Positions 8,654 through 26,695 are shown, counted from the first letter of the stretch. The stretch is 45,425 nt of DNA from Verrucomicrobiota bacterium (GCA_039815855.1 JBCBYL010000003.1:1-45425), one strand, 5' to 3'. Translations and numbers: made by a program. The notes: a model not told the origin generated them from the letters alone.

Positions 8654-8789
8654 GTCAATCGAGCCTGAAAAGATGGACTAGACTGAGGTGAAAAGCAATC
8701 ACCTATTTGAGTGATGATACGATCCTCACCAGGCTCCGAATCACCTTTCCAATTCACTCAACTTCAACTAGTACCTGCGGGTAGTCCTA

Positions 8790-10578: not shown

Positions 10579-10803
10579 CTAGTCACTCGCCTGAGCGCGA
10601 CGACCTTGTTCTACTGACTTCAGTTCGACCATCATCTCATCGAACTTTTCTCGATTACAGGAACAGTAAAGACATAGACCCGAGTGATATTTCAATGCCA
10701 CACGTTCGGTGAGGCGAAGCGGGCGCGCAAGGCCTTTCTCGACCAATTCAAAAGCGTCCTGGCAATTAGGAAGCGTTAACCATGATTTTTTTTCACCACT
10801 CAT
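10579..10803 (-). CDS. Small zf-HC2/ZAS-like zinc-finger protein
   Basis: C-X25-HxxxCxxC (NCQDA...HSGLCLYC). ATGA overlap with the upstream OYE gene. Confidence 0.7.
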   Translation of the reverse strand: MSGEKKSWLTLPNCQDAFELVEKGLARPLRLTERVALKYHSGLCLYCSCNREKFDEMMVELKSVEQGRRAQASD

Positions 10804-11894
10804 GACTCTGGATCATAAGGAGGGAAGGTGGTGTAGCCTTCGGCCCCAGTCGGAGAATACCAATCTTTCACATCCGCTTCCGGAGCGAGTGGCCAGTGGT
10901 TAGCAAATCGTTCCACCAAATCCGGATTACTAATGAAAGGACGTCCGATCGCAATCAGATCTGCTTTACCCGCCTGGATCGCTTTTTCTGCCTCTTCTTG
11001 AGAATATCCGCAATTGCCCATAAGTGGATTCGTGAAGAGAGGCCTGATTTCTTCCAATGTCATCGGTTCACCCAACTCATGGAAGCCGAACGCTAATCCA
11101 TCCATGACATGAAGATAACCCAGATTAAGTTCATTCAGCTCGTTGATGACATAGGTAAATTGCTCTCGATAGTCAGGCGAACCCATATCATTAAAGACTC
11201 CATTAGGAGCGAGGCGGACTCCGACCTGACCAGATGACCAGACGCTGAGGACACCTTCCAACACTTCTTTCAGGAAACGGTAACGATTCTCAATCGACCC
11301 TCCATATTCATCGTCCCGGTGGTTGGTCTTGGATTGTAAAAATTGATCGATCAGATAGCCGTTAGCACCGTGAACTTCCACCCCGTCAAAGCCTGCTGCT
11401 TTTGCCCGTTCCGCTGCTTTGCGATAGTCGTCCACCACACCCGGAATTTCACTCGTTTCTAGAGCACGAGGCACTTCGTACGCTTCCTTTCCCTTGGGAG
11501 TGTGAACATACTCGCCCCCGTTTTTGATCGGAGAGGGAGCTACCGGAAGTTGACCATCTTCCTGAAAGCTGCTGTGGGAGGCTCTGCCGCAGTGCCAGAG
11601 CTGGAGCACAATCGGACATCCCTTAGCGTGAACCGCATCCACGACTTGTTTCCAGCCTTCTGCCTGCTCATCGGTGTAAATTCCCGGTGACTGGACCCAC
11701 CCATTTCCTTGCGCCGAAACCACGGTCGCTTCCGTAATGATGAGCCCGGCAGAGGCACGCTGGGCATAGTATTCAGCCATAATCGGCTTAGGAATCCGGT
11801 CTTCGTCGGAGCGAGCCCTCGTCATGGGTGCTAAGACGACTCTGTTTTTGAGGCTCTTTCCGAGAGCAGAATAGGGTGAAAGGAGATCTGACAT
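10800..11894 (-). CDS. nemA: Old Yellow Enzyme / NemA-like alkene reductase
   Basis: APMTRAR, QLWHCGR, GFDGVEVHGANGYLIDQF, GRPFISNPDL, GYT. Confidence 0.93.
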   Translation of the reverse strand: MSDLLSPYSALGKSLKNRVVLAPMTRARSDEDRIPKPIMAEYYAQRASAGLIITEATVVSAQGNGWVQSPGIYTDEQAEGWKQVVDAVHAKGCPIVLQLWHCGRASHSSFQEDGQLPVAPSPIKNGGEYVHTPKGKEAYEVPRALETSEIPGVVDDYRKAAERAKAAGFDGVEVHGANGYLIDQFLQSKTNHRDDEYGGSIENRYRFLKEVLEGVLSVWSSGQVGVRLAPNGVFNDMGSPDYREQFTYVINELNELNLGYLHVMDGLAFGFHELGEPMTLEEIRPLFTNPLMGNCGYSQEEAEKAIQAGKADLIAIGRPFISNPDLVERFANHWPLAPEADVKDWYSPTGAEGYTTFPPYDPES

Positions 11895-11941: not shown

Positions 11942-13735
11942 TTAGTTCGAGCTGTTTGGCTCGATGGAGAAAAAGCGCCGGTCACCAGAACCGGTATAGC
12001 GATAGAGGACCGTCTCCATGGGATCCGCATCTCCATCACTGACTTGATTTTCAAACGTGACCTGCGCATCGGCATCATCCCAAGGGCTCAAGTTCGCTGA
12101 TTCCTGAATCCGGTACACCAGTCCTTGACTGCTAAATGCCTTTCTCCGTTTGAAACTCAGACATGGATCACCATTGTCGAAAAGGATGGAGAGAGGAATC
12201 GAAGACGGCCGGTCCGGATCATTCGGATCCAGGTTAAAGGCAAATTCGGTTATATTATTCAATCCATCTAAATCGGGATCTGCGATATCGGATTGTTCTG
12301 AGGCAGAAAGAGAGGCCAATTCCCGCATTTTCCATTCATTGAGAAAAAGGTCACGAATCGTAAAAGTCAATTCCCTGGAAGCGATCAGATTGGATTGTTC
12401 ATCTAACGTCTCCACCTTAACCGTGTATGCTCCAAAGTTGAGCACACCGGGATTGAATGAAATTACGTTACCGCTCACGGAACTTTGAAACTGATTATTG
12501 AAATAAAGGCGAACCTCATCCGCATCATGGTTGGTATTCACTTGCAATTCAATGGGCGTTTCTTGGGGAACAGTCTTATCCAATGCTGGCAGACTGACTT
12601 GAACTAGCTCCGCCGGGCTGTTAAGAGGCTTGAGGAGAAAGCCCCGCACGTCACCATCCTTAATTCCATAACCCGTGATCCATCCTTGATCATTAATATC
12701 CTCAGCCCGTAAGAGGACCCAACCTGACTCCGTATCAATCAAATCGTTCAAATTAAGCAGCGTCTGTCCGTCCCAAAGAAACGCGCGAGTGATATCATAA
12801 TCCCGAAGAATGGTGTTCGATTGATCCTCTTCAGCTGGTTCACCATCAAAAGGTACATCAAACTCGTTCGTCTGCGTTTGAAAGATAATCTCGATCGTAT
12901 CGGAAGGATTCGTTGTCGAATAGCCAACCACTTGCCCAAAATTATTGATCCCTAAGGCATGGCTCTGACCGCCACCGAGATGACCAAGAAGAAAAACCTG
13001 ACCATCAACCCAACAACAGGCCACTTCCTCCCCTTCTCCCTGGCCGCTAAAGCCTGCACTGTGACCTAAATTATTGACTGCCAGCGCCTTACCAAACTGG
13101 CCCCCAGTCAGGTTCGGAAGACTGTTGGATTGAAAACCAGATTGAATAAATCCGGATTCATCATTGGCAGAGAGGCCAGAGCCGGTTACGGCACCATGCT
13201 GATTGAGTCCATAAATCCGACTGGAGTAGGCCCCGGTCAGGGAAAATAATTCCAGCGTTGTTCCTCCTGTAAGAACAAACCCCTGAGCTATCCCATTCTG
13301 AAAATAAAAGCCACCAATGTCTCCACGGTCGTTGATGGAGAGTGCCTCAGATGGAGAGACACCGATTAAGGAGTCGAGATCGGACAAGTTGCCACTAGCG
13401 TTCCAAAGACAAGCATGAATCTGGTTGGACGAGTCAGTGTAAGCTCCGACCACCGAGCCAGCTCCATTGATCGAAAGGGCTTTCGAATAAGGTCTTCCAA
13501 CCGTGATTAACGGAGTGGCTGATCCAGTCGAATCCCAACGTACGGCTTGAGGCTGTCCGTTCAGATCAATAGAAATCCCAACACTTTGACCCGATTCGTT
13601 CAGACTGATCCCATGGCTTTCAAGATCACCTGAAACAGGTGCTAATTCGACCACTTCATAATCCACACTTGCCTTCAACGCGCTGGCGCAGAAGCAAAGC
13701 GAAAGAACGAAGATGAGTGAGCGGTAACGTTTCAA
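11942..13735 (-). CDS. Secreted HAF-repeat protein with Ig-like and C-terminal DPDxDG module
   Basis: Signal peptide; repeats S.A.(S/G)IN..G..VG and (R/H)A.LW; C-terminal ADPDLDGLNNITEFAFNLDP..Y....S.NL..W. Confidence 0.8.
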   Translation of the reverse strand: MKRYRSLIFVLSLCFCASALKASVDYEVVELAPVSGDLESHGISLNESGQSVGISIDLNGQPQAVRWDSTGSATPLITVGRPYSKALSINGAGSVVGAYTDSSNQIHACLWNASGNLSDLDSLIGVSPSEALSINDRGDIGGFYFQNGIAQGFVLTGGTTLELFSLTGAYSSRIYGLNQHGAVTGSGLSANDESGFIQSGFQSNSLPNLTGGQFGKALAVNNLGHSAGFSGQGEGEEVACCWVDGQVFLLGHLGGGQSHALGINNFGQVVGYSTTNPSDTIEIIFQTQTNEFDVPFDGEPAEEDQSNTILRDYDITRAFLWDGQTLLNLNDLIDTESGWVLLRAEDINDQGWITGYGIKDGDVRGFLLKPLNSPAELVQVSLPALDKTVPQETPIELQVNTNHDADEVRLYFNNQFQSSVSGNVISFNPGVLNFGAYTVKVETLDEQSNLIASRELTFTIRDLFLNEWKMRELASLSASEQSDIADPDLDGLNNITEFAFNLDPNDPDRPSSIPLSILFDNGDPCLSFKRRKAFSSQGLVYRIQESANLSPWDDADAQVTFENQVSDGDADPMETVLYRYTGSGDRRFFSIEPNSSN

Positions 13736-13755: not shown

Positions 13756-14712
13756 TTACTTTGATTCGGGCAAAGGATTATCTGCTAAGATCGCAGTTTG
13801 ATTCATCCATTTCTGTAAATAGAGACTATCCTCTTTACTCCACTCGATATCTGCAAATTCTCTCGCAAGTCGGTCTGCAGCCTTCATTACTTGCACCCAG
13901 GCGATTCCTCCTGAGTGGACTTCAGGAGGAAATTGAGGAAAACTTTCCCTGTTTGAAGTGATTTCTCGTAAAGTCGCTAACTTGCCAGCTTCATTGATAG
14001 GGTGTGGCTCATCTGACTTCTCCCATTGACTCAACACATAGGCCATTTCACGCAAGGCCACTGCTTCCCCTACGATCCAGATCTGTTCATTGGTCCAAGC
14101 TTCCTCCCAATGCCGAGGCTCTCTCTCTTGTAGGCTGGCAAAATCAAAGACGAGTTCAGGGTGCCCCGCTTGTTTCAACTCAGGCGCTAACGTCTGGTGG
14201 CAGGCCACACAGGTATTGGCTCGATTGTAGAGGTCATGTAGATCCCGAAGTCCGGATGCTACCTTTTGGTCATAGCTATAGTCCATGCGGGTATGAGCCA
14301 GGAGGTACTCAGAAGCCGGTCCGTGGCAGGATTCGCAGCTCACCCCCTCCATGACAGTCGCCGCAGACGTCTTCCACTCCGGTTCCACTTCAGCTAAGGG
14401 AGCGTGACATACGGTGCACTGCGAGGACTTGGCCGGATCTTTTATCTCCAAACTCTCTGCCATCCGTTTCGACCAGGCCGTCGTTAAGGTGGCATAAGAC
14501 TTGGAATGCGGATCCAGATTTTTCCAAATCATGTACTGCTTACTCAGCTCGGCAGCTCCTCCATGGCACATGGACGTCTGGCAGGTCAACCCCCCGAGAT
14601 ATCCGGGACGCTTTTCCGGTTGCTCAAAAAATTCATACGATCTGGCCGTGGCCGGAAGAAGACACGTGATGATCCCAAACCACACTGTCAGGTAATTGCG
14701 ACGCCGTCTCAT
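13756..14712 (-). CDS. Cytochrome c554-family multiheme cytochrome
   Basis: Signal-like N-terminus; CQTSMCH (CX4CH), CTVCH, GVSCESCHGP, CVACH, AGHP. Start at 14712 or 14739. Confidence 0.85.
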   Translation of the reverse strand: MRRRRNYLTVWFGIITCLLPATARSYEFFEQPEKRPGYLGGLTCQTSMCHGGAAELSKQYMIWKNLDPHSKSYATLTTAWSKRMAESLEIKDPAKSSQCTVCHAPLAEVEPEWKTSAATVMEGVSCESCHGPASEYLLAHTRMDYSYDQKVASGLRDLHDLYNRANTCVACHQTLAPELKQAGHPELVFDFASLQEREPRHWEEAWTNEQIWIVGEAVALREMAYVLSQWEKSDEPHPINEAGKLATLREITSNRESFPQFPPEVHSGGIAWVQVMKAADRLAREFADIEWSKEDSLYLQKWMNQTAILADNPLPESK

Positions 14713-14766
14713 TAACAAAACTAATCCATCCTTGTTCATATTAAATTACCTGATAGCCAGTACCTA

Positions 14767-16479
14767 GTGGAGTTAGTAGAGAACACAAGCAAACTCGAAC
14801 ATGGGCGTACTCTTAGCGGTGAGGAACTTCTCGATTTCTTACCTGCTCTTAAAGAAGTACCCAAAGGGGTTTTCAATAAATTTGCTCAAGACGCGGCTGC
14901 CTTACGCGAGATCAAAGCAGGAGAGATTCTTTGCCGTGAGGGAGAGTTCGGCTCAACAGCGTTCTATCTTGTTTCCGGCTCTGTCGAAATTTTTATCGAG
15001 AATCCCCTTGCTCATGTTTCAACAACACCCGCTTCTGCGAATGGTCTTTTTGGACACTTCTACAAGCGGATGTCCAGCTTCCTCACTAGCGAGGGCAGGC
15101 CGGCGGAAGACACAGAAGGGAAAAGAAAATTTTTTCCTGTTGATGCCTCCGTTGACCTGAAAATCGATCATCCTCAAGCCACTCTTGAGGCTGGGGAATT
15201 ATTCGGTGAAATGACCTGCCGGACCTTCATGCCACGGTCCGCGACGATTCGAGCCAAAGAAGACTGTGTCATCGTGGAAATGCTCCGGGTCATTCTCGAC
15301 ATGCTGGTGGGCACCCGAGAAATCCAGAGTGAGATTAAAAGCACGACCAAGGTAAAAGCGCCCACCTTTAAAGGAACCACATTTAAAGAAGAACTGGATA
15401 AAAAATACCGCGAGCGCTCCCTCAAGAATCATCTCAAAAGTGTGCCTATATTCGAGGAACTCAGTCAGGATTTTATTGATCAGTTAGCAGAGAACGTCGA
15501 GCTGAAGACCTATCATAAAGGGGAGGTCATCTGCCAGCAGGGAGATGTGGCCGATCGCTTCTACCTCATCCGCCAGGGACTGGTCAAAGTATCTCAAGCC
15601 ATGCCTGGCGGTGAAATGGTCAAAACCTATCTTTGCCGGGGGGAATATTTTGGTGAAATGGGGCTGATTCTTCAAGCCCCCAGAACCGCCACCTGCACCG
15701 CCTCTGAAACCGTTGACCTGGTCGAGATCGGGCTAGATGACTTTGAGCAAATGCTAGCCCGATTCCCCAGTGTCTATGAGGAGCTGGACCGCGTTTCAAA
15801 CGCGCGTCTGGATGCACAGACTCGCCAAACGGTGACGACACCAGTTGCGGGATCAAAATCTTTAGAAGAAGCACTCGATCAGGGACTGCTCCAAGCCCAG
15901 AACTTACTCCTCATCGACCTGCATAAATGCACCCGCTGCGATCTCTGTGTCCAGGCCTGCGCAGATGCACATGATGGGATTAGTCGCCTGCTCCGTGATG
16001 GATTGCGCTACGAAAATTATCTGGTCGCGACCGCCTGCCGTTCCTGCCAGGACCCACTTTGTATGACCCAGTGTCCGGTAGGCTCCATCCGCCGCAAAGA
16101 CAATCTGGAAATCATTATTGAAGACTGGTGCATCGGGTGTTCGAAATGTGCGGAATTGTGCCCCTACGGAAACATCAACATGCATCCGGTTCCTGACCTG
16201 CCCATGAAGGGTAAAAAAAGAGGGGAAACGAAGAAAAATGGAGCTGAATCTGCTGATGGCAAGAAAGCCGCCCCTGCGAAAAAGGCTAAATCATCGAAAG
16301 CGACCACCTGTGATCTCTGCACTGAAATGAAAACTCCCAGCTGTGTCTATGCCTGTCCACATGACGCTGCGATGCGAGTCAACCCGGTTGATTTCTTTTC
16401 CAGGAAAATGCCTCACTTAAAAAATTTCCTCTATGATGCCCGTAGTCGGGCTCGAAAAGACTTTAGAACCACTCACTAG
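14767..16479 (+). CDS. Tandem cNMP-binding domains plus 4x[4Fe-4S] (DmsB/NrfC-like) ferredoxin domain
   Basis: FGEM......PRSAT and FGEM......PRTAT cassettes; Cys motifs CTRCDLCVQAC, CRSCQDPLCMTQCP, CIGCSKCAELCP, CDLC......CVYACP. Confidence 0.92.
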   Translation: MELVENTSKLEHGRTLSGEELLDFLPALKEVPKGVFNKFAQDAAALREIKAGEILCREGEFGSTAFYLVSGSVEIFIENPLAHVSTTPASANGLFGHFYKRMSSFLTSEGRPAEDTEGKRKFFPVDASVDLKIDHPQATLEAGELFGEMTCRTFMPRSATIRAKEDCVIVEMLRVILDMLVGTREIQSEIKSTTKVKAPTFKGTTFKEELDKKYRERSLKNHLKSVPIFEELSQDFIDQLAENVELKTYHKGEVICQQGDVADRFYLIRQGLVKVSQAMPGGEMVKTYLCRGEYFGEMGLILQAPRTATCTASETVDLVEIGLDDFEQMLARFPSVYEELDRVSNARLDAQTRQTVTTPVAGSKSLEEALDQGLLQAQNLLLIDLHKCTRCDLCVQACADAHDGISRLLRDGLRYENYLVATACRSCQDPLCMTQCPVGSIRRKDNLEIIIEDWCIGCSKCAELCPYGNINMHPVPDLPMKGKKRGETKKNGAESADGKKAAPAKKAKSSKATTCDLCTEMKTPSCVYACPHDAAMRVNPVDFFSRKMPHLKNFLYDARSRARKDFRTTH

Positions 16480-16481
16480 CC

Positions 16482-17396
16482 ATGATTATTGATCGCACAC
16501 ATCGCCAATGGGCTATCATCACTACCCTCCTATCTCTGATCGCCGTGGTCGCCTATCTCATCGTTTATCGGGAAGGTCGCACCAGCTACCTCCATGAGAG
16601 TGTCGGTGGCACTCCCCTAGCCTTGTCTTATGGAATCATTTCTCTGTTGATCTTCGTCTTTGCTGCCCTTCTGGGATGGCGCCGCAACCATCCGGCCCTC
16701 CGAGTTGGACGCTTGCAGTTCTGGCTCAAGGGCCACGTCTGGTTCACCCTCCTGACCATCCCGCTCGTCATCATGCATTCCGGGAATGAATGGGGAGCAC
16801 CGCTCACCCAGGTGCTGATGTGGATTTATTGGATTGTGATGATCAGTGGCTTAGTCGGCATCGGACTGCAGCATGTTCTCCCGCGGATGATGTTCCAGCG
16901 CCTCAAAGAGGAAGTCATCTTCGAACAAATTCCATTCCTCAAAGAACAACTACTGAAACGGTCTGAAGAAATTCACAAGATCCTCTCCACTCCGATACCG
17001 GATCCTGACTTTGAAAAACCAGTCCTGGCCACAGGTGAAGGCGAAGAAGAGCCGGAAGAAGTCGTCCCACCGATGTTGCCTGTCCCTCAAAGTGCGGTCA
17101 CGATGGTTGAGAAGGAATTACAACCCTACTTTCAATCCGAAGATGGCAGAAAGCAGCACCTGGGAGACAGTCAGGCGGCCTATGATTTCTTCCAAGCCAT
17201 GCGACTTCAATCGGCCGACCTCTGGCATCCTCAAATCGAGGAGCTCGAAGCGATGGTCCGCCAACGCCAGCAACTGGACCAGCAGGCACGCCTGCAACAT
17301 TGGCTTCACTACTGGCTTCTACTCCACGGTCCACTCTCCATTCTCCTCCTCGGCTTAACGGTGTGGCATGCCATCTTTTCACTGATCAGCTATTAG
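16482..17396 (+). CDS. Multi-pass inner-membrane protein with intramembrane His (putative b-heme, ferric-reductase-like)
   Basis: About five TM segments; WLKGHVW, MHSG, SGLVG, WLLLHGP, WH. Confidence 0.75.
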   Translation: MIIDRTHRQWAIITTLLSLIAVVAYLIVYREGRTSYLHESVGGTPLALSYGIISLLIFVFAALLGWRRNHPALRVGRLQFWLKGHVWFTLLTIPLVIMHSGNEWGAPLTQVLMWIYWIVMISGLVGIGLQHVLPRMMFQRLKEEVIFEQIPFLKEQLLKRSEEIHKILSTPIPDPDFEKPVLATGEGEEEPEEVVPPMLPVPQSAVTMVEKELQPYFQSEDGRKQHLGDSQAAYDFFQAMRLQSADLWHPQIEELEAMVRQRQQLDQQARLQHWLHYWLLLHGPLSILLLGLTVWHAIFSLISY

Positions 17397-17405
17397 AACA
17401 AAGCG

Positions 17406-18869
17406 ATGTCGAACGATCAGAAGGGAAAGCTAAACCAGAAGCAAATCGCGAAGCGATATAGCGGGAATCTGGACTATTTTAGTAAGCCACACTACTTCCG
17501 CTCACTGCGGGCGCGCATCCTAATCGGAGGGATCATCACTTCGGTGACGATCGTCGCTTTTTTCTTTCTCTGGGATGCCATCGCCTCCGAGGGTTCTGGA
17601 CCAGATCAACTCCTTAAGACCCTGCAAAACCCCGGCCCGATTTCTCAAGCCCATGCTGATTTCGCGATGGACTGCGCTCAGTGCCATGGAGAAGCGAATT
17701 TATTTGTTCAAGGAAACCTCATCCAATCACCAGTGGATGCCTCCTGCATCGACTGCCACCCCGGCTTTGAACTCCATCAGCCCAATATGCCGCGTGAGCA
17801 TTCGTGCACCGCATGTCACCATGAACATTTAACGGATGGGCCAATGAAACCTGTCAACGATGCGAACTGCGCTTCTTGCCACGGTTCCGATGACCTGATG
17901 GCACAGGCCCGCGAGCTGGATGAAAAAGGGGAAAGTGGGAAAATCCCGGAACACGCTTTCGACTACACCGCCGAAGACGGCCATGTGTATTTCAAGCCGG
18001 CACGGCCAGAAGAAGGCTATACGGCTGTCTTTACTCAATTTGATCAGGGGCACCCTGCCTTCCAGATCCATCGCGAGAATCTTTCCGACCCCAACACCCT
18101 CGATTTCAACCACGCCATCCATATGACAGGCGAGAGCATTCCTGATCTAAATGGACGCCCGCTGAACTGTGCGGACTGTCATGAGCCGGACGCATCGGGA
18201 ATGTACATGCGCCCGATCTCGTATGAAGCACACTGTCAGGATTGCCACGCCCTCCAGTTTGACATGAATAATCCGGACATGGAATTACCTCATGGAAATG
18301 CGGAGGACGTTCTCATTTACCTGGCTGGATTACCACTACACTATGAGAGCAAGGCCATGAAGTTGGGGATCACCGACAAGAAAGAGACCATGGCCTTCGC
18401 CGCAACTCAGCTCATGAATTTGAAAAAAGACCTCCGCTCGACCATGCCTCTGGAAGAAAAAATCTTCTTTGAAGCCGGGGGCGAAGCAGAAGCGATCAGC
18501 CTTGGCAATACCATTGGCAAACCGACCGCGGACTACCCCGGCTGCATCTACTGTCACGAGGTAAACCGCGACGACATGGGACGTCCACAGGTCACCGCTC
18601 CGGTAACCCCGGATCGTTGGATGGGACAGAGCCTCTTTAATCATGCCAAGCATACCCACATGGAATGCGCTGACTGTCACCAGGTCGAAGACAGTGAACT
18701 CACCTCGGATATCCTGATGCCACCTATTGAGAACTGCCTCGATTGTCACAGCCAAAAAGGAAAGATCGTTCACTCCTGTCAAACCTGCCACGGCTACCAT
18801 GCCCCGTCATCATCACAAGGTGCGCTCTGGTGGATTGAGCAAAACTCAGAAACTGTAGCTTCAGAATAA
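17406..18869 (+). CDS. Membrane-anchored decaheme cytochrome c (c3/c7-like modules)
   Basis: N-terminal TM, PGPISQAH, ten CxxCH motifs, two FNH..H distal-ligand motifs. Confidence 0.92.
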   Translation: MSNDQKGKLNQKQIAKRYSGNLDYFSKPHYFRSLRARILIGGIITSVTIVAFFFLWDAIASEGSGPDQLLKTLQNPGPISQAHADFAMDCAQCHGEANLFVQGNLIQSPVDASCIDCHPGFELHQPNMPREHSCTACHHEHLTDGPMKPVNDANCASCHGSDDLMAQARELDEKGESGKIPEHAFDYTAEDGHVYFKPARPEEGYTAVFTQFDQGHPAFQIHRENLSDPNTLDFNHAIHMTGESIPDLNGRPLNCADCHEPDASGMYMRPISYEAHCQDCHALQFDMNNPDMELPHGNAEDVLIYLAGLPLHYESKAMKLGITDKKETMAFAATQLMNLKKDLRSTMPLEEKIFFEAGGEAEAISLGNTIGKPTADYPGCIYCHEVNRDDMGRPQVTAPVTPDRWMGQSLFNHAKHTHMECADCHQVEDSELTSDILMPPIENCLDCHSQKGKIVHSCQTCHGYHAPSSSQGALWWIEQNSETVASE

Positions 18870-18874
18870 GTCCA

Positions 18875-21253
18875 ATGGTCAGGCAATTACAGCAGCAAGT
18901 TTTATTTTGGAGTGTGCTTTCACTTCTAAGCTTGATGGTCTCCTGTTCACCATCGGACGATCAGAAAATAACCGTCAAGAAGCCGGTCCAAGCAGCCTCT
19001 CAAGAAGAGTCAGACTCTACGCAATCTGAGCAAACAACCGCTCCGCTCCTGGAAAACTCAGAAGAGTTCAAAAACATCTCCCCCTCTCAAGTTGAAGGCT
19101 GGATGAAGCGAGAATTGAAAGCATCACCTGAACCGGGACAAGACCAAAAAATCAAAGTGAAAACCGTGACTCCTCTAGAGGAGAATTCAAATCGATCTAC
19201 TCCCTCCCCGGCACAAATTATCGTCTCAGAAAATCCATTCATGGACGCCACCAAAGAAGTCTTCAACCCGGATCCCGGAGCCTATGCCAGCATGTCAGTA
19301 CCTCAGACCGTTCTCAGCCAACCCCTCCCGGAAGCGAGCGACTACGAACTGGGAGAGATGCCTGAATCCATAGATCAGAGAGGCCAGTCTGCCCGATCCA
19401 TTCCCGCGAAAATGCCTAAGTTTAAACCGGGCTCGATGCCAAAACCAGGTGATGTCTATGATGGTCTCCCTGCTCACACCGAACTAGCCGGCAGCCGCTG
19501 GGTTCCTTACAGTCAACATCCCCGTTACCCGGACCCGGAAACCGCGGAGACACCGCTCCAGGATGAAATCCCCTACCTCTGGCACCCCTACAAACAAAGT
19601 ATCTTGAAAGGGGATGTCCCCATTCTCGGAGAAAATGTCTTTTTAAAAATCACCGCCCAGTCACGGACGGATTTCGAAGCGAATGACACCCCAACTGGGA
19701 GTGGCATCAGCGGAGCCGATCCAAATAATGCCGAATTTTTTGGTGAAGGGGATACTCTCATCGTTCAGCAAAATACCTTACTGACGATCGACCTGTTCCA
19801 GGGCGAAACGGAAGTCTTCAAACCATTCGAATGGAGGCTCCGCCTCCAACCCGTCATTAACGTAAACTACTTCCAAACCACAGAAACCGGCGTACTGCAG
19901 CCAGATGTCCGGGGAGAGACTGCTACTGCAGATACGGTCGAGCAGTCGTTTACTGTTTTTGATGAAAGTGTTTTGAACCCTGCTAGCATTGAAGCAGACA
20001 AAAGCTCACTTCTCGACAGCGCCCCGGGTGATTATAATGAAGAGGTAGTCACGCGACGCCGTGAATTCGTCGCCCTTCAGGAAGGGTTCTTCGAATTTCA
20101 TGTCACTGACATCAGTAGCACTTACGATTTCATTAGTACACGTTCCGGCTATCAGGTCTTTAACAGCGACTTCCGTGGTCTGGTCTTCTTTGACACCAAT
20201 CTGGGTTACCGGATTTTCGGCAATGCGGAAAACAACCTTTGGAATTACAACCTCGCCTTCTTTGATATCCGGGAAAAAGACACCAACTCGGAATTGAATA
20301 CCTTTAAAGACCGGGGACAAGATGTTTTTATCGCCAACCTCTACCGCCAGGATTTTATCTGGCCCGGCTATACCATTAATCTCAGTGGACTCGTCAATAT
20401 CGACAGCGGAAACCAATACGATAATGAAAACGATTTCCCCATCCGCCCGGCCATCATTGGCCAGATCGATCAACAGGTTCGTAAAGACGTCAATTCCTAC
20501 TACCTCGGATTTAGTGGAGAAGGAAAATTTGGCCGGGTTAATATCTCCCACTCGTTTTATCAGGTCTTTGGTAAAGAGACCTTTAATTCACAAGCCAACC
20601 AGGAAACGGAAATTAACGCGCAGCAGGCCCACGTGGAAGTTTCCTATGACCGGGATTGGATTCGTTACAAAGGGACGTTTTTCTACGCTTCTGGAGACAG
20701 TGATCCGGAGGATGGTGTTGCCGAAGGCTTTGACAGCATCATTGACAACCCTTTCCTGATTGGCGGTCCTTTCAGTTACTGGGTGCGCCAAGGCCTCGGA
20801 CTCCCTGGCACTGGAGTCGCGCTGAAACAACGTAACAGTCTGATCCCTAACTTTCGAGCACCGAATAAGTTTGAAGGTCAGTCCAATTTTGTGAACCCGG
20901 GTGTGATGATTTTTGGAGTCGGTACCGATATCGAACTCACCTCGGAAACACGTCTATTCTTTAACGCCAACTACATTCGTTTCGTTGAGACCAACCCCCT
21001 CAAACAAGTTCTGTTTGATAATAAAATTGATCACGAAGTCGGCTACGACTTGAGTGCTGGCATCATTGCCCGCCCGTTGCTCAACGACACCTTCGTGATT
21101 AATGCAGGCATTGGACTCCTCATTCCAGGACAGGGATTTGAAGATATTTATGGATTCAATGAAGCCCCGGTGGAAACGTTTGATTCCGGGGATGGAAAAG
21201 ATTTTGAAGAAGTGCTCTACAGCGCCTTCATTCAATGCATTTTGACTTGGTAA
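18875..21253 (+). CDS. Putative outer-membrane beta-barrel protein with lipobox-like N-terminus and long low-complexity linker
   Basis: LSLMVSC, then a Pro/Ser/Glu-rich stretch, then an aromatic/Asn/Asp-rich alternating-strand region (YASGD.DP.DG...GFD), ending in terminal Trp. Confidence 0.7.
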   Translation: MVRQLQQQVLFWSVLSLLSLMVSCSPSDDQKITVKKPVQAASQEESDSTQSEQTTAPLLENSEEFKNISPSQVEGWMKRELKASPEPGQDQKIKVKTVTPLEENSNRSTPSPAQIIVSENPFMDATKEVFNPDPGAYASMSVPQTVLSQPLPEASDYELGEMPESIDQRGQSARSIPAKMPKFKPGSMPKPGDVYDGLPAHTELAGSRWVPYSQHPRYPDPETAETPLQDEIPYLWHPYKQSILKGDVPILGENVFLKITAQSRTDFEANDTPTGSGISGADPNNAEFFGEGDTLIVQQNTLLTIDLFQGETEVFKPFEWRLRLQPVINVNYFQTTETGVLQPDVRGETATADTVEQSFTVFDESVLNPASIEADKSSLLDSAPGDYNEEVVTRRREFVALQEGFFEFHVTDISSTYDFISTRSGYQVFNSDFRGLVFFDTNLGYRIFGNAENNLWNYNLAFFDIREKDTNSELNTFKDRGQDVFIANLYRQDFIWPGYTINLSGLVNIDSGNQYDNENDFPIRPAIIGQIDQQVRKDVNSYYLGFSGEGKFGRVNISHSFYQVFGKETFNSQANQETEINAQQAHVEVSYDRDWIRYKGTFFYASGDSDPEDGVAEGFDSIIDNPFLIGGPFSYWVRQGLGLPGTGVALKQRNSLIPNFRAPNKFEGQSNFVNPGVMIFGVGTDIELTSETRLFFNANYIRFVETNPLKQVLFDNKIDHEVGYDLSAGIIARPLLNDTFVINAGIGLLIPGQGFEDIYGFNEAPVETFDSGDGKDFEEVLYSAFIQCILTW

Positions 21254-21257
21254 TATT

Positions 21258-24200
21258 TTGAAATCTGAACTAAGAGCATTCATTGGTATCGGAGCCCTCG
21301 GCCTCAGCGGAGTCGCCCTCTCCATGCTCCACGCTCAAAATGCGCCGTCCGCCTCCGGGCCCGAGACGGCGGCTCAGCTCGAACGCACCCCTGAAGTCAG
21401 CCTTCCTGAAGAAAACTGGATCGATCAGTCACAAGAAGAAGCCAACTTGAAAAGCAGGGGCTGCATGGAATGTCATGAGGGAATCGAGAAAATGCATTCC
21501 TCTCCTCAAGTCGTTCTCGGTTGCGTCGATTGTCACGGTGGTGACCCGAGCCCGGGACTGACCTTGGAAGAGTCTCATATTTTACCAAAGAATCCGGAAT
21601 ACTGGCCCACCTCAGCGAACCCAATTGATTCCGGTGTCCTTCTGAATCAGGAATCTCCTGAGTTCATCCGCTTCGTGAACCCGGGTGATCTGCGGGTAGC
21701 CAAACAAGCCTGCGGACAGTGCCACCAGGAAATTATTGATCAAGTTGGCCATAGCATGATGAATCACGGAGCCATGCTTTGGGGAGCCGCCCTGTATAAC
21801 AATGGTTCCTATCCTTATAAAAACTATATCTTTGGCCAGTCCTACGGACCCAATGGAGAAGCACTCCGCCTCAACAGCCCAATTGAAGTCACTCCGGAAA
21901 TGACGAAAGAACAGGGAATCCTTCCTTTTCTGGATCCGCTTCCCCGCTTTCAGTTTAGCCAGCCCGGAAATGTTCTCCGTATCTTTGAAAAGGGTGGCGA
22001 GATCGTTCCGGAATTCGGAAACCCCTTTCCTATCGAGCCACCGGGGCGTCCGATCCGCCGACTGTCAGAACGTGGCCTGGGCACTGGAAATCGAATTGAT
22101 CCCGTCTTTTTGGGTCTTCAGAAAACCCGCCTCCATGATCCGCTTCTGGGCTTTATGGGCTCGAATGATCATCCTGGGGACTATCGCTCCAGCGGCTGTA
22201 CCGCCTGCCACACCATTTACGCCAACGACCGCTCCCCGGCCAACTCCGCCTGGTATGCGAAGTATGGCCACCAAGGCCTTTCCTACAGTGGTGACCCGAC
22301 CATTCCCAAGGATGAAAGAGGTCACCCCATCAAACACCAATTCACCCGTTCCATCCCATCGAGCCAGTGTATGAACTGTCATATGCACCAGGGAAATCTC
22401 TTCGTGAATAGTTACCTCGGCTATACCTGGTGGGATCAGGAAAGTGACGGAGAGCACATGTATCCTAAAGAGCAGAAACGTGTCACTCCTAATGATATTG
22501 CCCGCTCGGTAATCAAAAACCCGTCCGAGGCAGCCGCTCGCGGAAATTGGACCGATCTTGAGTTCCTGGAAAAAGTATCTGAACTTAATCCTGAACTCGA
22601 GCACACCCAGTTTGCTGATTACCATGGCCACGGCTGGGTTTTTCGCGCTGTTTTCAAGAAAGATCGCGAAGGAAATCTCCTCGATCTCAAAGATCAGGTC
22701 ATTCCGCATGATCATCCGAACAAGTTTGCTGAAGCCGTCCACCTCAAGGATATCCACGTTGAAAAGGGTATGCAGTGTGCCGACTGCCACTTCCTCGGAG
22801 ACGTTCATGGAAATGGTCTTCTCTACGGAGAACCCCGAAACGCAACCACGATTGAATGCCAGGATTGCCACGGCACCGCCACCAAGCGCCCGACTCTCAT
22901 CACTTCCGGTAAGGGTGGACAGAATGATCTCAATGAAAGCTCCACTCCTTGGGGGCCACGTTTCTACTGGCAGGGTGATCGACTCTTTCAGCGCTCCATC
23001 ATGTCTCCGGACGTGACTTGGGAAGTCACCCAGACCATCGATACCCTGGACCCCAGCTCACCGCATTACAACGCCAAGTCTCATTACGCTAAAACCATCC
23101 AACGCGATGGCGAAACCTGGGGAGATGTGCCTGATGACGAACTCAATCGCCGTCTAGCCCTGGCCCATAACCAGGAAGATATCAACTGTCAGGTCTGCCA
23201 CACTTCCTGGGCCACCAGCTGTTTCGGATGCCACCTTCCGCTCAAAGCCAATAACTACAAACCGACCAATAAATATGAAGGAACTGTTTCCCGCTTTTAC
23301 ACTTCCTACAACCCGCAGGTCATTCGCGATGATGTCTTCATGCTCGGGCTCGATGGCACGGTGAAGGACAATCAGCTGGCAGTGATCCGCTCCTCCAGTG
23401 CGGTGGTAGTCAGTTCCCAGAATGCAGCGCGGGAATGGTCTTACGCGCAGCAGCAGACCATCTCATCAGAAGGCTACAGCGGCCAAGCCTTTAACCCTCA
23501 CTTTGCCCATACGACGAGCGGAGTCGGCACCACTAAAAATTGCACCGACTGCCACCTTTCTAAAGAAAACGATAATAATGCCATCATGACCCAGCTACTG
23601 GGCTACGGCACCGGGACGGTCAACTTCTTTAGCCGTTATGCTTACGTCGCCGCCTATGATAAAGGAGTCTACGCCATCCCGTGGACGGAACGGGAGGAGC
23701 CCCAGGCCGCCATCGGTAGCTTCCTCTACAGTATCGTTTACCCCGGTGATCATCAGGAGCATCTGGACCGCGGAGGGCGCCTGACTGAAGCTCATCACCA
23801 TCACGGTCATGACACCTTGAAACAGATTTCGAATCTCATCAGTGGGAAACATGCTAAGATCCAGGACATACAAAGACGTGGCGAGTTCCTTTACACCGCC
23901 GCAGGCACGGGCGGATTCGAGGTTCTGGATATTGCCAACATCGATCAGAAGGGATTTGCTGAACGCATTGTGACCGCTCCGTTCTCTCCGCTGGGCTGGC
24001 GAACGTACGTTCGGACGAAATATGCCACCTCGGTGGTGCTTCCCAGCACCCTGGCCAATGATCCGGCTCGAAACCGAAATCCAGTCAATGAAGAGCAACC
24101 GATTCACATGCTCTACGCTTATGTTTACGTCACCGATAAGGAGGAAGGCATCATTGCTGTCAATGTCGCTACCCTTCTCGACGGAAACCCAAGAAATAAT

Positions 24201-25076
24201 TTCCTCGAACGAGCCGTTACCTTTAACCCGGAAGGGAAGCTTAAAGGCGCGATGGCAGGCTACATTGCAGGGCATCACCTCTATGTTGTTGCGGATAAAG
24301 GCCTCTTCGTCATTGATGTCGACGATCCTCTCAATCCGAAGATCGTAGGAGAATATACCGGTGACTTCTTAAATCACCCCCAGGATATCGAAGTTCAATT
24401 TCGTTACGCCTTCCTGACTGATAAGGACGGAATGAAGGTCATGGATCTCAGCGATCCTCTCAACCCCGCACCGATTGAAGGAGCCGTCGTTCCACTCAAG
24501 AAAACCAGACGCCTCTACCTGGCCCGCACCTATGCCTATGTCGCTGCCGGACCTCAAGGTCTGGCCATCATCGATATCACCAACCCGGAAAAACCAGTCG
24601 TTGACCAACTGTTCACCGACGACGGAAAGATCAATGATTTGAAAGATGTAAAAGTAGGCTCCGTCAATGCCTCCATGTTCGCCCTGCTGGCGGATGGAAA
24701 AAATGGTTTCAAGGTCGCCCAGCTGATTTCCCCGGACACGGTTCCCGGTCATATGGGTTTCAGCCCACGCCCGAAACCGAAAGTCATTTCCTGGTTCAAA
24801 ACTTCTGGCCCGGCCTATGCCATCAGCCGCGGTCTCGATCGTGATCGAGTCGCTGACGAAACCGGTAACCAGACCGTGGTCTTCGGGCGTCGTGGGTCAC
24901 GTCCGTTCCACCTCGATGAAATGCAGGCCTTCTACCGCAAGGGTATGGGCGCCTATGCCCGCCAGGAAGGAACCGCAGAACCCGGTGACTTTTATTTTGT
25001 CGAAGACCTTTCCAATGATACGGAAAATCGACGTGACCTTAAAACCAAGAGTGGCAAAATCATCGAACTTCCCTGA
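21258..25076 (+). CDS. Large secreted decaheme cytochrome c with C-terminal LVIVD-repeat propeller
   Basis: Signal peptide, ten CxxCH in the first ~770 aa, then repeats YAYVA....GL.IID..P..P. Confidence 0.9.
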   Translation: MKSELRAFIGIGALGLSGVALSMLHAQNAPSASGPETAAQLERTPEVSLPEENWIDQSQEEANLKSRGCMECHEGIEKMHSSPQVVLGCVDCHGGDPSPGLTLEESHILPKNPEYWPTSANPIDSGVLLNQESPEFIRFVNPGDLRVAKQACGQCHQEIIDQVGHSMMNHGAMLWGAALYNNGSYPYKNYIFGQSYGPNGEALRLNSPIEVTPEMTKEQGILPFLDPLPRFQFSQPGNVLRIFEKGGEIVPEFGNPFPIEPPGRPIRRLSERGLGTGNRIDPVFLGLQKTRLHDPLLGFMGSNDHPGDYRSSGCTACHTIYANDRSPANSAWYAKYGHQGLSYSGDPTIPKDERGHPIKHQFTRSIPSSQCMNCHMHQGNLFVNSYLGYTWWDQESDGEHMYPKEQKRVTPNDIARSVIKNPSEAAARGNWTDLEFLEKVSELNPELEHTQFADYHGHGWVFRAVFKKDREGNLLDLKDQVIPHDHPNKFAEAVHLKDIHVEKGMQCADCHFLGDVHGNGLLYGEPRNATTIECQDCHGTATKRPTLITSGKGGQNDLNESSTPWGPRFYWQGDRLFQRSIMSPDVTWEVTQTIDTLDPSSPHYNAKSHYAKTIQRDGETWGDVPDDELNRRLALAHNQEDINCQVCHTSWATSCFGCHLPLKANNYKPTNKYEGTVSRFYTSYNPQVIRDDVFMLGLDGTVKDNQLAVIRSSSAVVVSSQNAAREWSYAQQQTISSEGYSGQAFNPHFAHTTSGVGTTKNCTDCHLSKENDNNAIMTQLLGYGTGTVNFFSRYAYVAAYDKGVYAIPWTEREEPQAAIGSFLYSIVYPGDHQEHLDRGGRLTEAHHHHGHDTLKQISNLISGKHAKIQDIQRRGEFLYTAAGTGGFEVLDIANIDQKGFAERIVTAPFSPLGWRTYVRTKYATSVVLPSTLANDPARNRNPVNEEQPIHMLYAYVYVTDKEEGIIAVNVATLLDGNPRNNFLERAVTFNPEGKLKGAMAGYIAGHHLYVVADKGLFVIDVDDPLNPKIVGEYTGDFLNHPQDIEVQFRYAFLTDKDGMKVMDLSDPLNPAPIEGAVVPLKKTRRLYLARTYAYVAAGPQGLAIIDITNPEKPVVDQLFTDDGKINDLKDVKVGSVNASMFALLADGKNGFKVAQLISPDTVPGHMGFSPRPKPKVISWFKTSGPAYAISRGLDRDRVADETGNQTVVFGRRGSRPFHLDEMQAFYRKGMGAYARQEGTAEPGDFYFVEDLSNDTENRRDLKTKSGKIIELP

Positions 25077-26695
25077 TGAATTTAAAACCATTGCATATGA
25101 ACTGCCTCCCAAACCCCGCGATGACTCATCCTGTCTTTATTGCTCTCTGCTTACTGCTCTCTGTTCACTGTCTACCCGTTACCGCTCAGACGCTGGACGC
25201 AGGGGAGGTCACCACTATCGTCAATCAGGCCGCCACTGCGGCAGCTGCCCTCAATCCTCCTCAAGATGCCCTTATCTCAGTAGTAGACCGTGAGGGAAAT
25301 GTTCTGGTCGTCTGGGACACTATTCCCGGCACTGTTCCTACCCCAGAAGAGGTTGGGGATGTCATCAGCCGGGCTGGAGTCGCCTGCTTTCTCAACAGTA
25401 ACCAAAATGCCCTCACCAGCCGCACTGCCGGCTTCATTGTGCAAGCTAATTTCCCCCCCGGATTCACTAATCGAATCAATGGACCTTTGATTGGAGTCAA
25501 CTTCTCCCACTTTAGTTGGTCTGATATTAATCGTTTTCGAGCCCCGCCGTTTCCTGCTGTTCCAGCTAACCCTGCAGTATCTCCGGCATTGGGAGCTGCC
25601 ATCCCGAATACTTCCCTTTCTGGCACTCCCGGTGGGGTCCCTCTTTATGAGAATGGGGTTCTGGTTGGCGGAGTTGCTGTTATCGGTGACAACAATGACG
25701 AGGTTACTCCCGGTTCGATTGCAAGCGCTGATACTGATGAATCCTTAGCTCTCGCCGGCCAGATCGGATTCGAACCACCCGTTGCCATCCGTGCTTTCCG
25801 GATTTTCTTTGATGGGATCAGTCTGCCCTACGTAAAATCATCAGTTCCCAGCCTCGGAGCCGTAGGGCCTGTTGGCGCACCCGCTGTTGGATTCGGATTC
25901 CCTATTACCGCCTCTCCATTACCGGCTGGCTATCCCAACGTTCCTATTTATCCCACCGACACTTTCTCGGGGGTAACAGGAGAGCTCCGGGCTCCAATTA
26001 TTGACGCTGCTAATCCCGGCGGACTAACCAGCCCGCTCACGGCAGGGGATGTGCGAAACATCATGACCGCTTGTGTTGCTCGAGCGAATATTACTCGCTC
26101 TCGGATCAGGATCCCGCGAGGCAGTGCAGCTGCTGTCTATGTTGCAGTGGTGGCAAAACAAACCTCCGATCCTGCGCAAGCTGGTCAAAATACTCCTGGG
26201 CAAGTGTTGGGCATTTTCCGGATGCCTGATACCGTCAGCCGGAGTTGGGACATTTCCGTCCAGAAAGCAAGGACTTGTACTTTTTTCTCGAATAGCGATT
26301 CTGCCTTTACTACCAGAGCTGTCGGATGGCTGAGTCAGGAATTTTATCCTCCCGGAATTAACAACCCGATCACCCCGTCAGGTCCGTGGTTTGCGATTCA
26401 ACCCGGAATTTCTAATATCAACTCGCTTGTTCCTGTGAATGCAAATTTTCCCAACGGCATTACCATCTTTGCGGGTGGGCACCCACTTTATAAAGACGGT
26501 CAGTGTGTCGGAGCGGTTGGCATTAGTGGGGACGGGATTGATGAAGATGACATCATCGCGGCGGCAGGAACCGTCGCTCCCCGGGCGGATGGTCAGGGGA
26601 CCTTTGCTGCTCCAGACGGTATTCGTGCTGACAAATTTACTTTTCGCGGAGCCCGCCTCCCCTACGCCAAATTTCCACGTAACCCGGTACGATAA
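25076..26695 (+). CDS. Secreted tandem GlcG/HbpS-like heme-binding protein
   Basis: ISVVDREG, PGGVPLYENG.LVGGVAV.G and second copy QKART..F, AGG.PLYKDG..VGAVGISGDG.DEDD. Confidence 0.85.
   Translation: MNLKPLHMNCLPNPAMTHPVFIALCLLLSVHCLPVTAQTLDAGEVTTIVNQAATAAAALNPPQDALISVVDREGNVLVVWDTIPGTVPTPEEVGDVISRAGVACFLNSNQNALTSRTAGFIVQANFPPGFTNRINGPLIGVNFSHFSWSDINRFRAPPFPAVPANPAVSPALGAAIPNTSLSGTPGGVPLYENGVLVGGVAVIGDNNDEVTPGSIASADTDESLALAGQIGFEPPVAIRAFRIFFDGISLPYVKSSVPSLGAVGPVGAPAVGFGFPITASPLPAGYPNVPIYPTDTFSGVTGELRAPIIDAANPGGLTSPLTAGDVRNIMTACVARANITRSRIRIPRGSAAAVYVAVVAKQTSDPAQAGQNTPGQVLGIFRMPDTVSRSWDISVQKARTCTFFSNSDSAFTTRAVGWLSQEFYPPGINNPITPSGPWFAIQPGISNINSLVPVNANFPNGITIFAGGHPLYKDGQCVGAVGISGDGIDEDDIIAAAGTVAPRADGQGTFAAPDGIRADKFTFRGARLPYAKFPRNPVR

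Follow-up and report, generated by a model that had tools for sequence, protein, structure and literature searches.

The gene cluster analyzed here lies at positions 13,756 to 26,695 of a 45,425-nt stretch of DNA (hereafter, the window) from a bacterium of the phylum Verrucomicrobiota (GCA_039815855.1 JBCBYL010000003.1:1-45425), and it has two close counterparts in the literature. The first is the ptdABCDEFG operon, which was named in a 2024 preprint for marine Alpha- and Gammaproteobacteria, Nitrospirales, and Planctomycetes (10.1101/2023.11.21.568154). According to the description given there, the operon encodes a pentahaem cytochrome with a beta-sandwich, a porin, an FAD/NAD(P) oxidoreductase, a tetrahaem cytochrome, a cyclic nucleotide monophosphate (cNMP)-binding Fe-S protein, a ferric-reductase-like membrane protein, and a decahaem cytochrome, and the authors call its function "completely unknown". 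A limited literature search found no paper besides this preprint that uses the ptd names. The second is a novel porin-multihaem complex of freshwater Verrucomicrobia, which has been proposed for electron transfer to humic substances, with strain IMCC26134 and Ca. Udaeobacter among the carriers (He et al., 2017; PMC5615132). An earlier note on the window, made from the sequence alone, had taken the cluster for an uncharacterised, cyclic-nucleotide-controlled wire from the cytoplasm to the cell surface. "Uncharacterised" is correct as far as experiments go, but the inner part of the system had already been named in print, as ptd, and a verrucomicrobial porin-multihaem cluster had been proposed in 2017. 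Similar clusters have been noticed in print before, and none has been tested.

The seven genes of the cluster fall into two modules, module A (13756-18869), which encodes a c554-like cytochrome, an Fe-S protein, a membrane protein, and an anchored decahaem cytochrome, and module B (18875-26695), which encodes a beta-barrel, a decahaem/propeller protein, and an HbpS/GlcG-like protein:

13756-14739, minus strand: c554-like tetrahaem cytochrome, 327 aa
14767-16479, plus strand: protein with two cyclic-nucleotide-binding domains and four [4Fe-4S] motifs, 570 aa
16482-17396, plus strand: His-bearing inner-membrane protein, 304 aa
17406-18869, plus strand: anchored decahaem c-type cytochrome, 487 aa
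18875-21253, plus strand: outer-membrane beta-barrel of an unannotated family, 792 aa
21258-25076, plus strand: decahaem/LVIVD propeller protein, 1272 aa
25076-26695, plus strand: tandem HbpS/GlcG-like (DUF336) protein, 539 aa

All seven open reading frames (ORFs) were recovered where the earlier note had placed them, with the six co-oriented genes spaced by 2, 9, 5, 4, and −1 bp. The motif count agreed with its 23 CxxCH motifs and one Cx4CH motif (three plus the Cx4CH in the 327-aa protein and ten each in the 487-aa and 1272-aa proteins), and searches of Pfam and NCBIfam found the domains that it had named, that is, c554, cNMP plus polyferredoxin, LVIVD, and two HbpS/GlcG halves. The same two databases gave no molybdopterin, HAO, or NrfA family match among the cluster proteins, as it had also stated, and none of the seven proteins contains a CxxCK motif. 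The haem motifs are kept across relatives (see below), so that their presence is not due to chance. The observation made in the note is confirmed, and its first interpretation is partly supported. The inside-to-outside order of the genes, for example, applies to this lineage, but elsewhere the two halves of the cluster are inverted, kilobases apart, or on different contigs.

By domain content and order, module A corresponds to PtdD-G, a likeness of descriptions and not of compared sequences. The preprint's account differs in several respects: PtdA, for which the preprint used JGI gene Ga0066848_100031354 as query, is a pentahaem cytochrome with a beta-sandwich (assigned to the NrfA COG), in contrast to the decahaem/LVIVD propeller protein encoded here; the window has no PtdC gene, and a tandem HbpS/GlcG gene is added; and the preprint counts two 4Fe-4S clusters, as compared with four motifs here. 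The complex described by He et al. (2017) shares with module B the clustering of a porin gene with multihaem genes, and its carrier taxa overlap with those of the related loci described below. In that description, the porin has 20 or more transmembrane (TM) strands and adjoins a periplasmic cytochrome with eight conserved haem sites, whereas here there are about 18-20 strands and two cytochromes with ten haems each. The section of the paper that describes the complex mentions no cNMP/Fe-S, membrane, or GlcG parts. This cluster is probably the same as module B.

We propose that the two modules form a redox system for the cNMP-gated, quinone-independent export of electrons from the cytoplasm, an explanation to which we give a little less than an even chance. 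The polyferredoxin would take electrons from NAD(P)H-linked flavoproteins or from ferredoxin and would dock at the cytoplasmic face of the membrane protein, whose five TM helices might hold two b-haems, one pair of ligands inside (H85/H282) and one outside (H99/H296). From there, electrons would pass to the membrane-anchored decahaem wire, presumed to have bis-His ligation, and to the soluble, periplasmic c554-like tetrahaem cytochrome. The two cNMP domains would gate the flow. The membrane potential should favour the outward direction, and a leak without such a gate would be wasteful, at the expense of both NAD(P)H and the potential. The decahaem/propeller protein would be the terminal oxidoreductase and would meet its acceptor through or at the barrel. 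Rather than sheathing a haem wire, the barrel would, in our preferred view, serve the acceptor as a channel or a place to dock; humic quinones, chelated Fe(III), and other anions are the candidates.

The 570-aa protein would stand at the entry of this route. It matches cNMP_binding (126.8 bits) and Fer4 families in Pfam and consists of two cNMP domains followed by a HydN/HycB/DmsB-like polyferredoxin with four [4Fe-4S] motifs, the 16 Cys of which are nearly invariant among relatives. The corresponding matches in the PDB are the regulatory subunits of PKA and PKG, which have tandem cNMP domains, and, for the C-terminal half, the electron-wire subunits HycB3 and HycB4. A hydropathy scan revealed no signal peptide and no TM or other hydrophobic segment, in agreement with the cytoplasmic location given in the earlier note. 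The phosphate-binding motif of cNMP domains is FGE...R[ST]A; its G, E, and R are conserved in domain 1 in 40 of 40 sequences, and in domain 2 the G and E are present in 39 and the R in 33 of the 40, so that the motif is largely kept there as well. No DNA-binding or kinase output domain was matched in Pfam. Nearly all relatives listed for the proteins of both modules are annotated only as "hypothetical" or "CRP-like".

Pairs of His residues spaced by 13-14 residues on two helices are the signature of two stacked b-haems, as in NOX/FRE, MsrQ, and cytochrome b. In the membrane protein, H85/H99 and H282/H296, 14 residues apart in each pair, are invariant in 17 of 17 aligned sequences, and four segments exceed the hydropathy threshold; with a fifth, inferred segment (residues ~81-101), the protein would have five TM helices. 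Judging from the His pattern, it may be placed to hold two b-haems stacked across the membrane. The closest clusters in the ESM Atlas carry the automatic name "ferric reductase like transmembrane component". When the Fe-S protein and the membrane protein were folded together, the interface score (ipSAE) was 0.62 (0.58, 0.62, and 0.65 in individual runs), as compared with 0.00 for the best of three controls. The pass mark of this score is reached by 58 of 80 solved complexes and by 2 of 110 mismatched pairs, rates that are approximate, as our own alignments were used. The runs had at least 86% of the contacts in common, and the pLDDT (predicted local distance difference test) of the partners was at least 77. 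In the predicted interface, two cluster motifs of the Fe-S protein, the first (385-401) and the last (521-533), face the N-terminus and the loops 68-82, 130-147, and 272-276 of the membrane protein, close to H85 and H282. The model thus predicts docking of the Fe-S protein at the cytoplasmic face of the membrane protein, in line with the inside-facing partner envisaged in the note, and it is consistent with an N-in, C-out topology of five helices in which H85 and H282 would lie near the cytoplasm and H99 and H296 near the periplasm.

The two remaining proteins of module A are c-type cytochromes. The 327-aa protein belongs to the family Cytochrome_C554 (PF13435; 50.3 bits, with a cut-off of 20.8), and its closest match among PDB sequences is the Nitrosomonas cytochrome c554 (E 1.3e-4). 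At 25.9 bits, it remains far below the NCBIfam threshold of 400 for an equivalog of the Nitrosomonas protein. All four haem motifs, including the Cx4CH, are kept in 16 of 16 relatives, together with four further conserved His. Its true start is probably at Met10, which would yield a signal peptide beginning with MRRRR. As listed, the divergent c554-like and Fe-S genes start only 27 bp apart. The 487-aa decahaem cytochrome has a single N-terminal TM anchor (residues 38-56) and retains 10 of 10 CxxCH motifs in 19 of 19 relatives, with about 43 residues per haem. It matches Cytochrome_C7/c3 families in Pfam, has weak similarity to ActA and TmcA, and scores 15.9 bits against the MtrA/DmsE family TIGR03508, the cut-off of which is 192.2. 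Ten further His are conserved, sufficient for bis-His ligation at each of the ten haems; this number and the small size per haem point to a bis-His wire and not to an enzyme.

In module B, the 18875-21253 product is an outer-membrane barrel in the AlphaFold2 model, as the earlier note had supposed. The model (residues 125-792, from an alignment of 58 sequences) has a mean pLDDT of 74.3, with 296 residues at or above 90. A disordered, low-complexity N-terminal region of about 230 residues precedes some 18-20 long antiparallel strands. A Foldseek search placed AlgE at the top (E 1e-16, TM-score by target 0.62-0.69), followed by OprD/Occ, MOMP, and OmpF-type porins; MtrB was not among the rows listed of 308 matches. 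The sequence itself had no match in Pfam, NCBIfam, or the PDB (best PDB E 7.6). An aromatic residue at the C-terminus is the usual signal for outer-membrane insertion, and Y, F, or W occupies this position in 60 of 60 family members. The barrel contains a lipobox-like motif, MVSC, with a counterpart in only 14 of 60 relatives, and lipoprotein status is therefore not a trait of the family. In the protein database the barrel has 779 aa, 13 residues fewer than the ORF, so that the start codon, within 18875-18913, is uncertain. All 120 listed clusters of related proteins are unnamed or "hypothetical". Barrels of the MtrB/PioB family have about 26 strands; the barrel encoded here, with about 18-20 strands, no match to that family, and AlgE and 16-18-strand porins as its nearest folds, appears from the model to be of a narrow, substrate-channel type.

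The 1272-aa protein combines a haem part (residues ~45-800) with an LVIVD beta-propeller (residues ~800-1195; 52.8-64 bits). All ten CxxCH motifs are present in 71 of 71 full-length relatives, along with 12 further conserved His and four conserved Met. It is a bulky protein, with about 76 residues per haem, and its N-terminus, judged by eye, resembles a plain signal peptide and has no lipobox. The conserved residues of the propeller include Asp, Glu, Tyr, and Arg, with no His, Cys, or Met among them. Of the named families, ExtM alone matched the haem domain significantly (E 4.8e-21; 74.7 bits, with a cut-off of 800). A PDB sequence search retrieved no cytochrome at E up to 1, the best hit being unrelated (E 0.34), and the neighbours in the ESM Atlas are unnamed multihaem proteins of 590-840 aa. 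Nor does the protein resemble OmcA/MtrC by family search: the MtrC/MtrF II-IV domain scored 19-24 bits against a cut-off of 30, TIGR03507 gave no match, and there is no lipobox. Matches to the fold were generic propellers, namely, cytochrome cd1 nitrite reductase (TM-score by target ~0.4), 6-phosphogluconolactonase, BtuG, and AztD. A catalytic haem of the NrfA, HAO, OTR, or MccA type was also considered for this protein; it was set aside, as there is no CxxCK and the conserved His and Met are enough for six-coordination of ten haems, which is not proof. On the combination of LVIVD and multihaem proteins, only a preprint on Tenderiales was found, in which the LVIVD protein is described as a separate surface protein. 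With an AlgE-like barrel and a bulky cytochrome that lacks a lipobox, a haem wire through the barrel is putative, as are a crossing of the outer membrane by haems and exposure of the 1272-aa protein on the cell surface. In 17 related loci (L012, L035, L038, and L053 among them), the next gene after that of the decahaem/propeller protein encodes a secreted 423-aa NHL-repeat propeller, which the window lacks.

For the last protein of the module, the designation as a tandem GlcG haem protein stands in part. The family assignment is supported by a PF03928 match of 70.1 bits for the whole 539-aa protein (cut-off 25), with 22.2 bits for the N-terminal half, just under the cut-off, and 51.6 bits for the C-terminal half. 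A haem role is putative: across 29 relatives, none of the His, Cys, or Met residues is conserved, and of the residue types screened (H, M, C, K, Y, and W), K397 and Y472 alone are shared by 90% or more. The protein is read as exported. Its gene occurs in 49 of 80 loci with the decahaem/propeller gene, usually divergent and upstream of the barrel gene.

To place the cluster among its relatives, one genome per species was scanned, which yielded at least 599 matches to the pattern, at least 597 of which encode a relative of the 1272-aa protein. The guess that such clusters may be widespread was borne out by these at least 597 species genomes with a decahaem/propeller gene as well as by at least 4925 related clusters (at 90% identity) for the Fe-S protein and at least 2930 for the barrel. 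The best 80 matches were mostly from Verrucomicrobiota, including Chthoniobacterales, Pedosphaera/Limisphaerales, Opitutae, Ca. Udaeobacter (L019), and strain IMCC26134 (L048); the last eight rows were Acidobacteriota and one Binataceae, with 50-53% identity. Seven carrier records (L026, L046, L049, L054, L056, L071, and L076) are titled Akkermansia (A. muciniphila included), Klebsiella, or Proteobacteria and hold copies that are 58-62% identical, with synteny of the verrucomicrobial type; these titles are likely binning or labelling errors. ORFs were called and clustered in the fetched loci, 82 of which contain at least one labelled gene. The decahaem/propeller gene was found in 80 of these 82 loci and the barrel gene in 67 of the 80, directly upstream where both were complete. 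Genes of module A were present in only 26 of the 82 loci, with varying position and orientation.

Within the phylum, the distribution is patchy: 4 of the 41 relatives have a full-length decahaem/propeller gene, and so do 4 of the 201 genomes of an even sample, with the host genome counted in each case. The co-occurrence of the modules is nevertheless exact. Among the 41 relatives, strong homologues of both the anchored decahaem cytochrome and the membrane protein were confined to the decahaem/propeller carriers (G000, G003, G008, and G039) and present in all four, as expected from the earlier claim that the proteins belong together, and the 201 genomes showed the same coupling in G000, G092, G142, and G211. 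The modules are split between contigs in G008, G039, and G092. In four verrucomicrobial genomes, module A is missing within 10 kb of module B, but the decahaem cytochrome is encoded elsewhere (40-42% identity); in an Acidoferrales genome, a more divergent decahaem gene lies about 13 kb away. All five carriers tested encode a homologue of the Fe-S protein. In G003, the entire row is present in the gene order of the window, and IMCC26134 (L048) likewise has the complete set in a single row. G016, which lacks the decahaem/propeller gene, has only a weak variant (G016:C49:11762-13746): a 287-aa ORF resembles the membrane protein (35% identity over residues 51-164), and the 804-aa ORF after it matches the decahaem cytochrome weakly. 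The c554-like gene of G039 (G039:C19:271687-272199; L175) stands immediately before the membrane and decahaem genes, without the Fe-S gene that separates them in the window; an Fe-S domain occurs there in an 836-aa ORF on the contig with module B, about 33 kb from that module, and a CHASE2 cyclase gene lies 2 kb from module A.

The neighbours of the related loci bear on the donor and on control. A fusion of NuoE/NuoF type (2Fe-2S, FMN, NADH 4Fe-4S) is encoded in 8 of the 26 loci with a module-A gene, and a TM-FAD-NAD-2Fe2S reductase is encoded directly upstream of the Fe-S gene in 7; one or the other type of flavoprotein is thus found in 15 of the 26. The reductase resembles PtdC as the preprint describes it. 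A CysJ-like FAD/NAD protein follows the decahaem/propeller gene in 14 loci (Chthoniobacterales). CHASE2 adenylate/guanylate cyclases are encoded in nine related loci, seven of them with a module-A gene, which strengthens the second-messenger link drawn in the earlier note. From these flavoprotein and cyclase neighbours, we infer an NAD(P)H or ferredoxin donor and a cyclic nucleotide gate. G000 encodes a homologue of the CHASE2 cyclase (41% identity) and a CysJ-like gene, both on other contigs, whereas a tblastn search with a related-locus protein found no homologue of the upstream, PtdC-like reductase in this genome. The window also encodes an NADH:flavin oxidoreductase of the old yellow enzyme family (10800-11894, minus strand, downstream of the c554-like gene on its strand), which could be the NAD(P)H entry point of the host genome; the G003 locus does not have it.

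The window corresponds to contig C30 in a 94% complete genome of 2.64 Mb and 246 contigs, and the sole sequencing run that contains the stretch is labelled marine metagenome. The genome encodes haem-copper oxidases and several secretins; the host can therefore respire oxygen and could export folded proteins. Following the c554-like gene, on the same strand and with a gap of 20 bp, is a gene for a secreted 597-aa repeat protein (11942-13735, minus strand) with a weak N-terminal match to DUF3466 and no haem motif; at this position it is conserved in G003, the carrier closest to the host (46% identity), and in none of the other loci. Two two-component systems flank the cluster, one with a histidine kinase that has a solute-binding domain (8711-10432) and one with a kinase and an OmpR-type regulator (29034-31621), and neither is kept beside the cluster in relatives.

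Several results count against electron export by the combined modules. The membrane protein matches no Pfam family, including PF01794, at E up to 0.01, and comparison with E. coli MsrQ and YodB by hhalign gave probabilities of only 0.1-0.2% (0.1% for MsrQ). The joint fold, like the single folds, was computed without haems or clusters, and its scores express model confidence and not binding. The AlphaFold2 model of the 1272-aa protein has a mean pLDDT of 63.4, with a confident propeller and a poor haem part, too poor for any functional inference from the fold matches. Neither type of NAD(P)H flavoprotein neighbour is present in the window. Moreover, the Fe-S protein was used to retrieve 80 loci from metagenomes, chiefly of soil (55-61% identity). 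All 80 contain the Fe-S gene, 76 the membrane gene, and 49 the decahaem gene, before which the remaining loci are truncated at a contig end; the barrel, decahaem/propeller, and HbpS genes were found in none of the 80, including 35 loci of at least 9 kb. Module A is therefore an independent unit in many lineages, with module B as one of its partners but not an obligatory one. In one well-sampled soil lineage (loci L101-L170), the trio of Fe-S, membrane, and decahaem genes lies among housekeeping genes that do not hint at its function; these encode gamma-glutamyltranspeptidase, NlpC/P60, DUF1761, a PAD_porph-family deiminase, GAPDH, and PGK. Finally, the Tmc and Hmc complexes of sulfate reducers, which have a similar set of parts (see below), run inwards.

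Other explanations have to be weighed against outward export. In keeping with the envelope-spanning conduit of the earlier note, the cluster might encode a true conduit of the MtrCAB/Pcc type, with one decahaem cytochrome sheathed by the barrel, the decahaem/propeller protein on the surface, and a continuous haem chain to insoluble or polymeric acceptors. The frequent pairing of the barrel and decahaem/propeller genes (67 of 80 loci, with a gap of 4 bp here) fits such a conduit, as does the order of the IMCC26134 type, in which the gene of the wire-like anchored decahaem cytochrome is directly upstream of the barrel gene. Export of a folded cytochrome is conceivable with the secretins of the genome; a porin-multihaem complex has been proposed for overlapping taxa (He et al., 2017; PMC5615132), and NHL proteins, such as the propeller encoded downstream in 17 loci, are described as conserved in the uet cluster of electroautotrophs. 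We consider a conduit unlikely all the same, since the nearest folds of the barrel are the 18-strand AlgE and 16-18-strand porins, with MtrB missing from the rows listed; since no MtrB_PioB, MtrA/DmsE, or OmcA/MtrC match exceeded its cut-off; and since the 1272-aa protein is bulky and without a lipobox, the anchored decahaem cytochrome is tied to the inner membrane, and lipobox-like motifs occur in only 14 of 60 barrels. Electron uptake, in which the same parts would run inwards from a low-potential periplasmic or extracellular donor to the Fe-S clusters and on to NAD(P)+ or ferredoxin, is distinctly improbable. The architecture is shared with Tmc/Hmc, TmcA itself being matched weakly (35.6 bits, with a cut-off of 114), and the ptd operon is reported from nitrite oxidisers and a putative lithotroph (10.1101/2023.11.21.568154). 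Inward flow, however, would oppose the membrane potential and would need a donor well below the potentials of the Fe-S clusters; the cluster encodes no hydrogenase, formate dehydrogenase, or other low-potential periplasmic donor, and haem-copper oxidases are encoded in the genome.

Slightly less probable still is a redox or cyclic-nucleotide sensor, in which the haem chain would report the periplasmic or extracellular redox state to the cNMP/Fe-S protein, with participation of the HbpS-like protein. HbpS-SenS-SenR is a sensing system of Streptomyces, and the presence of an HbpS-family gene in 49 of 80 decahaem/propeller loci, the cNMP domains, the neighbouring CHASE2 cyclases, and the two-component systems on both sides of the cluster would agree with such a function. 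But 24 haems, four clusters, and NADH-type flavoprotein neighbours exceed the needs of a sensor, an output domain for DNA binding or kinase activity is missing from the Fe-S protein, and the flanking kinases are not conserved in relatives. The two modules could, in addition, be unrelated systems that lie side by side by chance of position in the host genome, given that they are apart or inverted in most related loci and that module A stands alone in all 80 soil-metagenome loci. We give this explanation hardly any credence, because two samples, independent of each other, show both modules in the same genomes (4 of 41 in one, 4 of 201 in the other), even on different contigs, and because the decahaem gene found elsewhere in four genomes and the Fe-S protein in five of five carriers further support their connection.

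On a bolder and less probable reading, given at the end of the next paragraph, the electrons would reach extracellular humics or Fe(III), and the cluster would then represent the first route of extracellular electron transfer to combine independence from quinones with allosteric gating by a second messenger, in abundant soil and water heterotrophs that are not known metal reducers. The carriers include dominant groups of soil and freshwater, namely, Chthoniobacterales, Ca. Udaeobacter, Pedosphaerales, and Acidobacteriota; if reducing power is indeed exported under such control, the modelling of respiration, fermentation balance, and humic and iron cycling in their habitats would change. The transmembrane electron carriers would gain a new family, and the question of ptd function would receive a concrete path with named residues. 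The present analysis adds the split into two modules that co-occur, the di-haem His pattern, the docking prediction, the genes for flavoproteins and cyclases near the cluster in relatives, a barrel fold like that of AlgE, and the decahaem/propeller protein as an outer part specific to the lineage.

The cluster has partial likenesses to several well-known systems. Like MtrCAB of Shewanella and OmaB-OmbB-OmcB (Pcc) of Geobacter, it encodes a periplasmic multihaem cytochrome, a barrel, and a second large multihaem cytochrome; unlike these, it would be fed by a cytoplasmic Fe-S protein instead of a quinol dehydrogenase, it has no match to their families above cut-off, and its barrel is nearest to AlgE. 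The similarity to AlgE (PDB 4afk, 3rbh, and others), the best fold match, is one of fold only, with 10-12% identity and no Pfam match of the barrel to Alginate_exp (PF13372); an N-terminal extension, long and disordered, sets the barrel apart, and no polysaccharide genes lie nearby. ExtM (GSU2935) is the 12-haem cytochrome of the Geobacter extHIJKLMNOPQS cluster, which also encodes a porin-like protein (PMC5877670). As described there, ExtM differs from the 1272-aa protein by its 12 haems and the lack of a propeller, and its cluster uses a Rieske/cytochrome b pair. Closer in overall plan to the route proposed here, TmcABCD and HmcABCDEF of Desulfovibrio combine a periplasmic multihaem cytochrome c, a membrane cytochrome b, and cytoplasmic Fe-S proteins and do without quinones. 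Their cytoplasmic subunit is of the HdrD/CCG type, in contrast to the HydN type with cNMP domains found here, and the only match, to TmcA, is below threshold. The His pattern, in turn, recalls NOX, FRE, and MsrQ, which share the two His pairs on two helices and in which NAD(P)H-linked cytoplasmic partners feed the b-haems; the membrane protein differs from them by having five helices instead of six, by a cytoplasmic loop of 140 residues, and by a separate polyferredoxin as donor. It is a bold and doubtful idea that the trio of Fe-S protein, di-haem b protein, and decahaem cytochrome is a widespread, split-subunit bacterial counterpart of NADPH oxidase, in which cAMP or cGMP bound to the polyferredoxin would switch on electron flow from NAD(P)H or ferredoxin across the inner membrane, past the quinones, and, in Verrucomicrobiota and Acidobacteriota, into a lineage-specific barrel and decahaem/propeller protein that would reduce extracellular humics or Fe(III).

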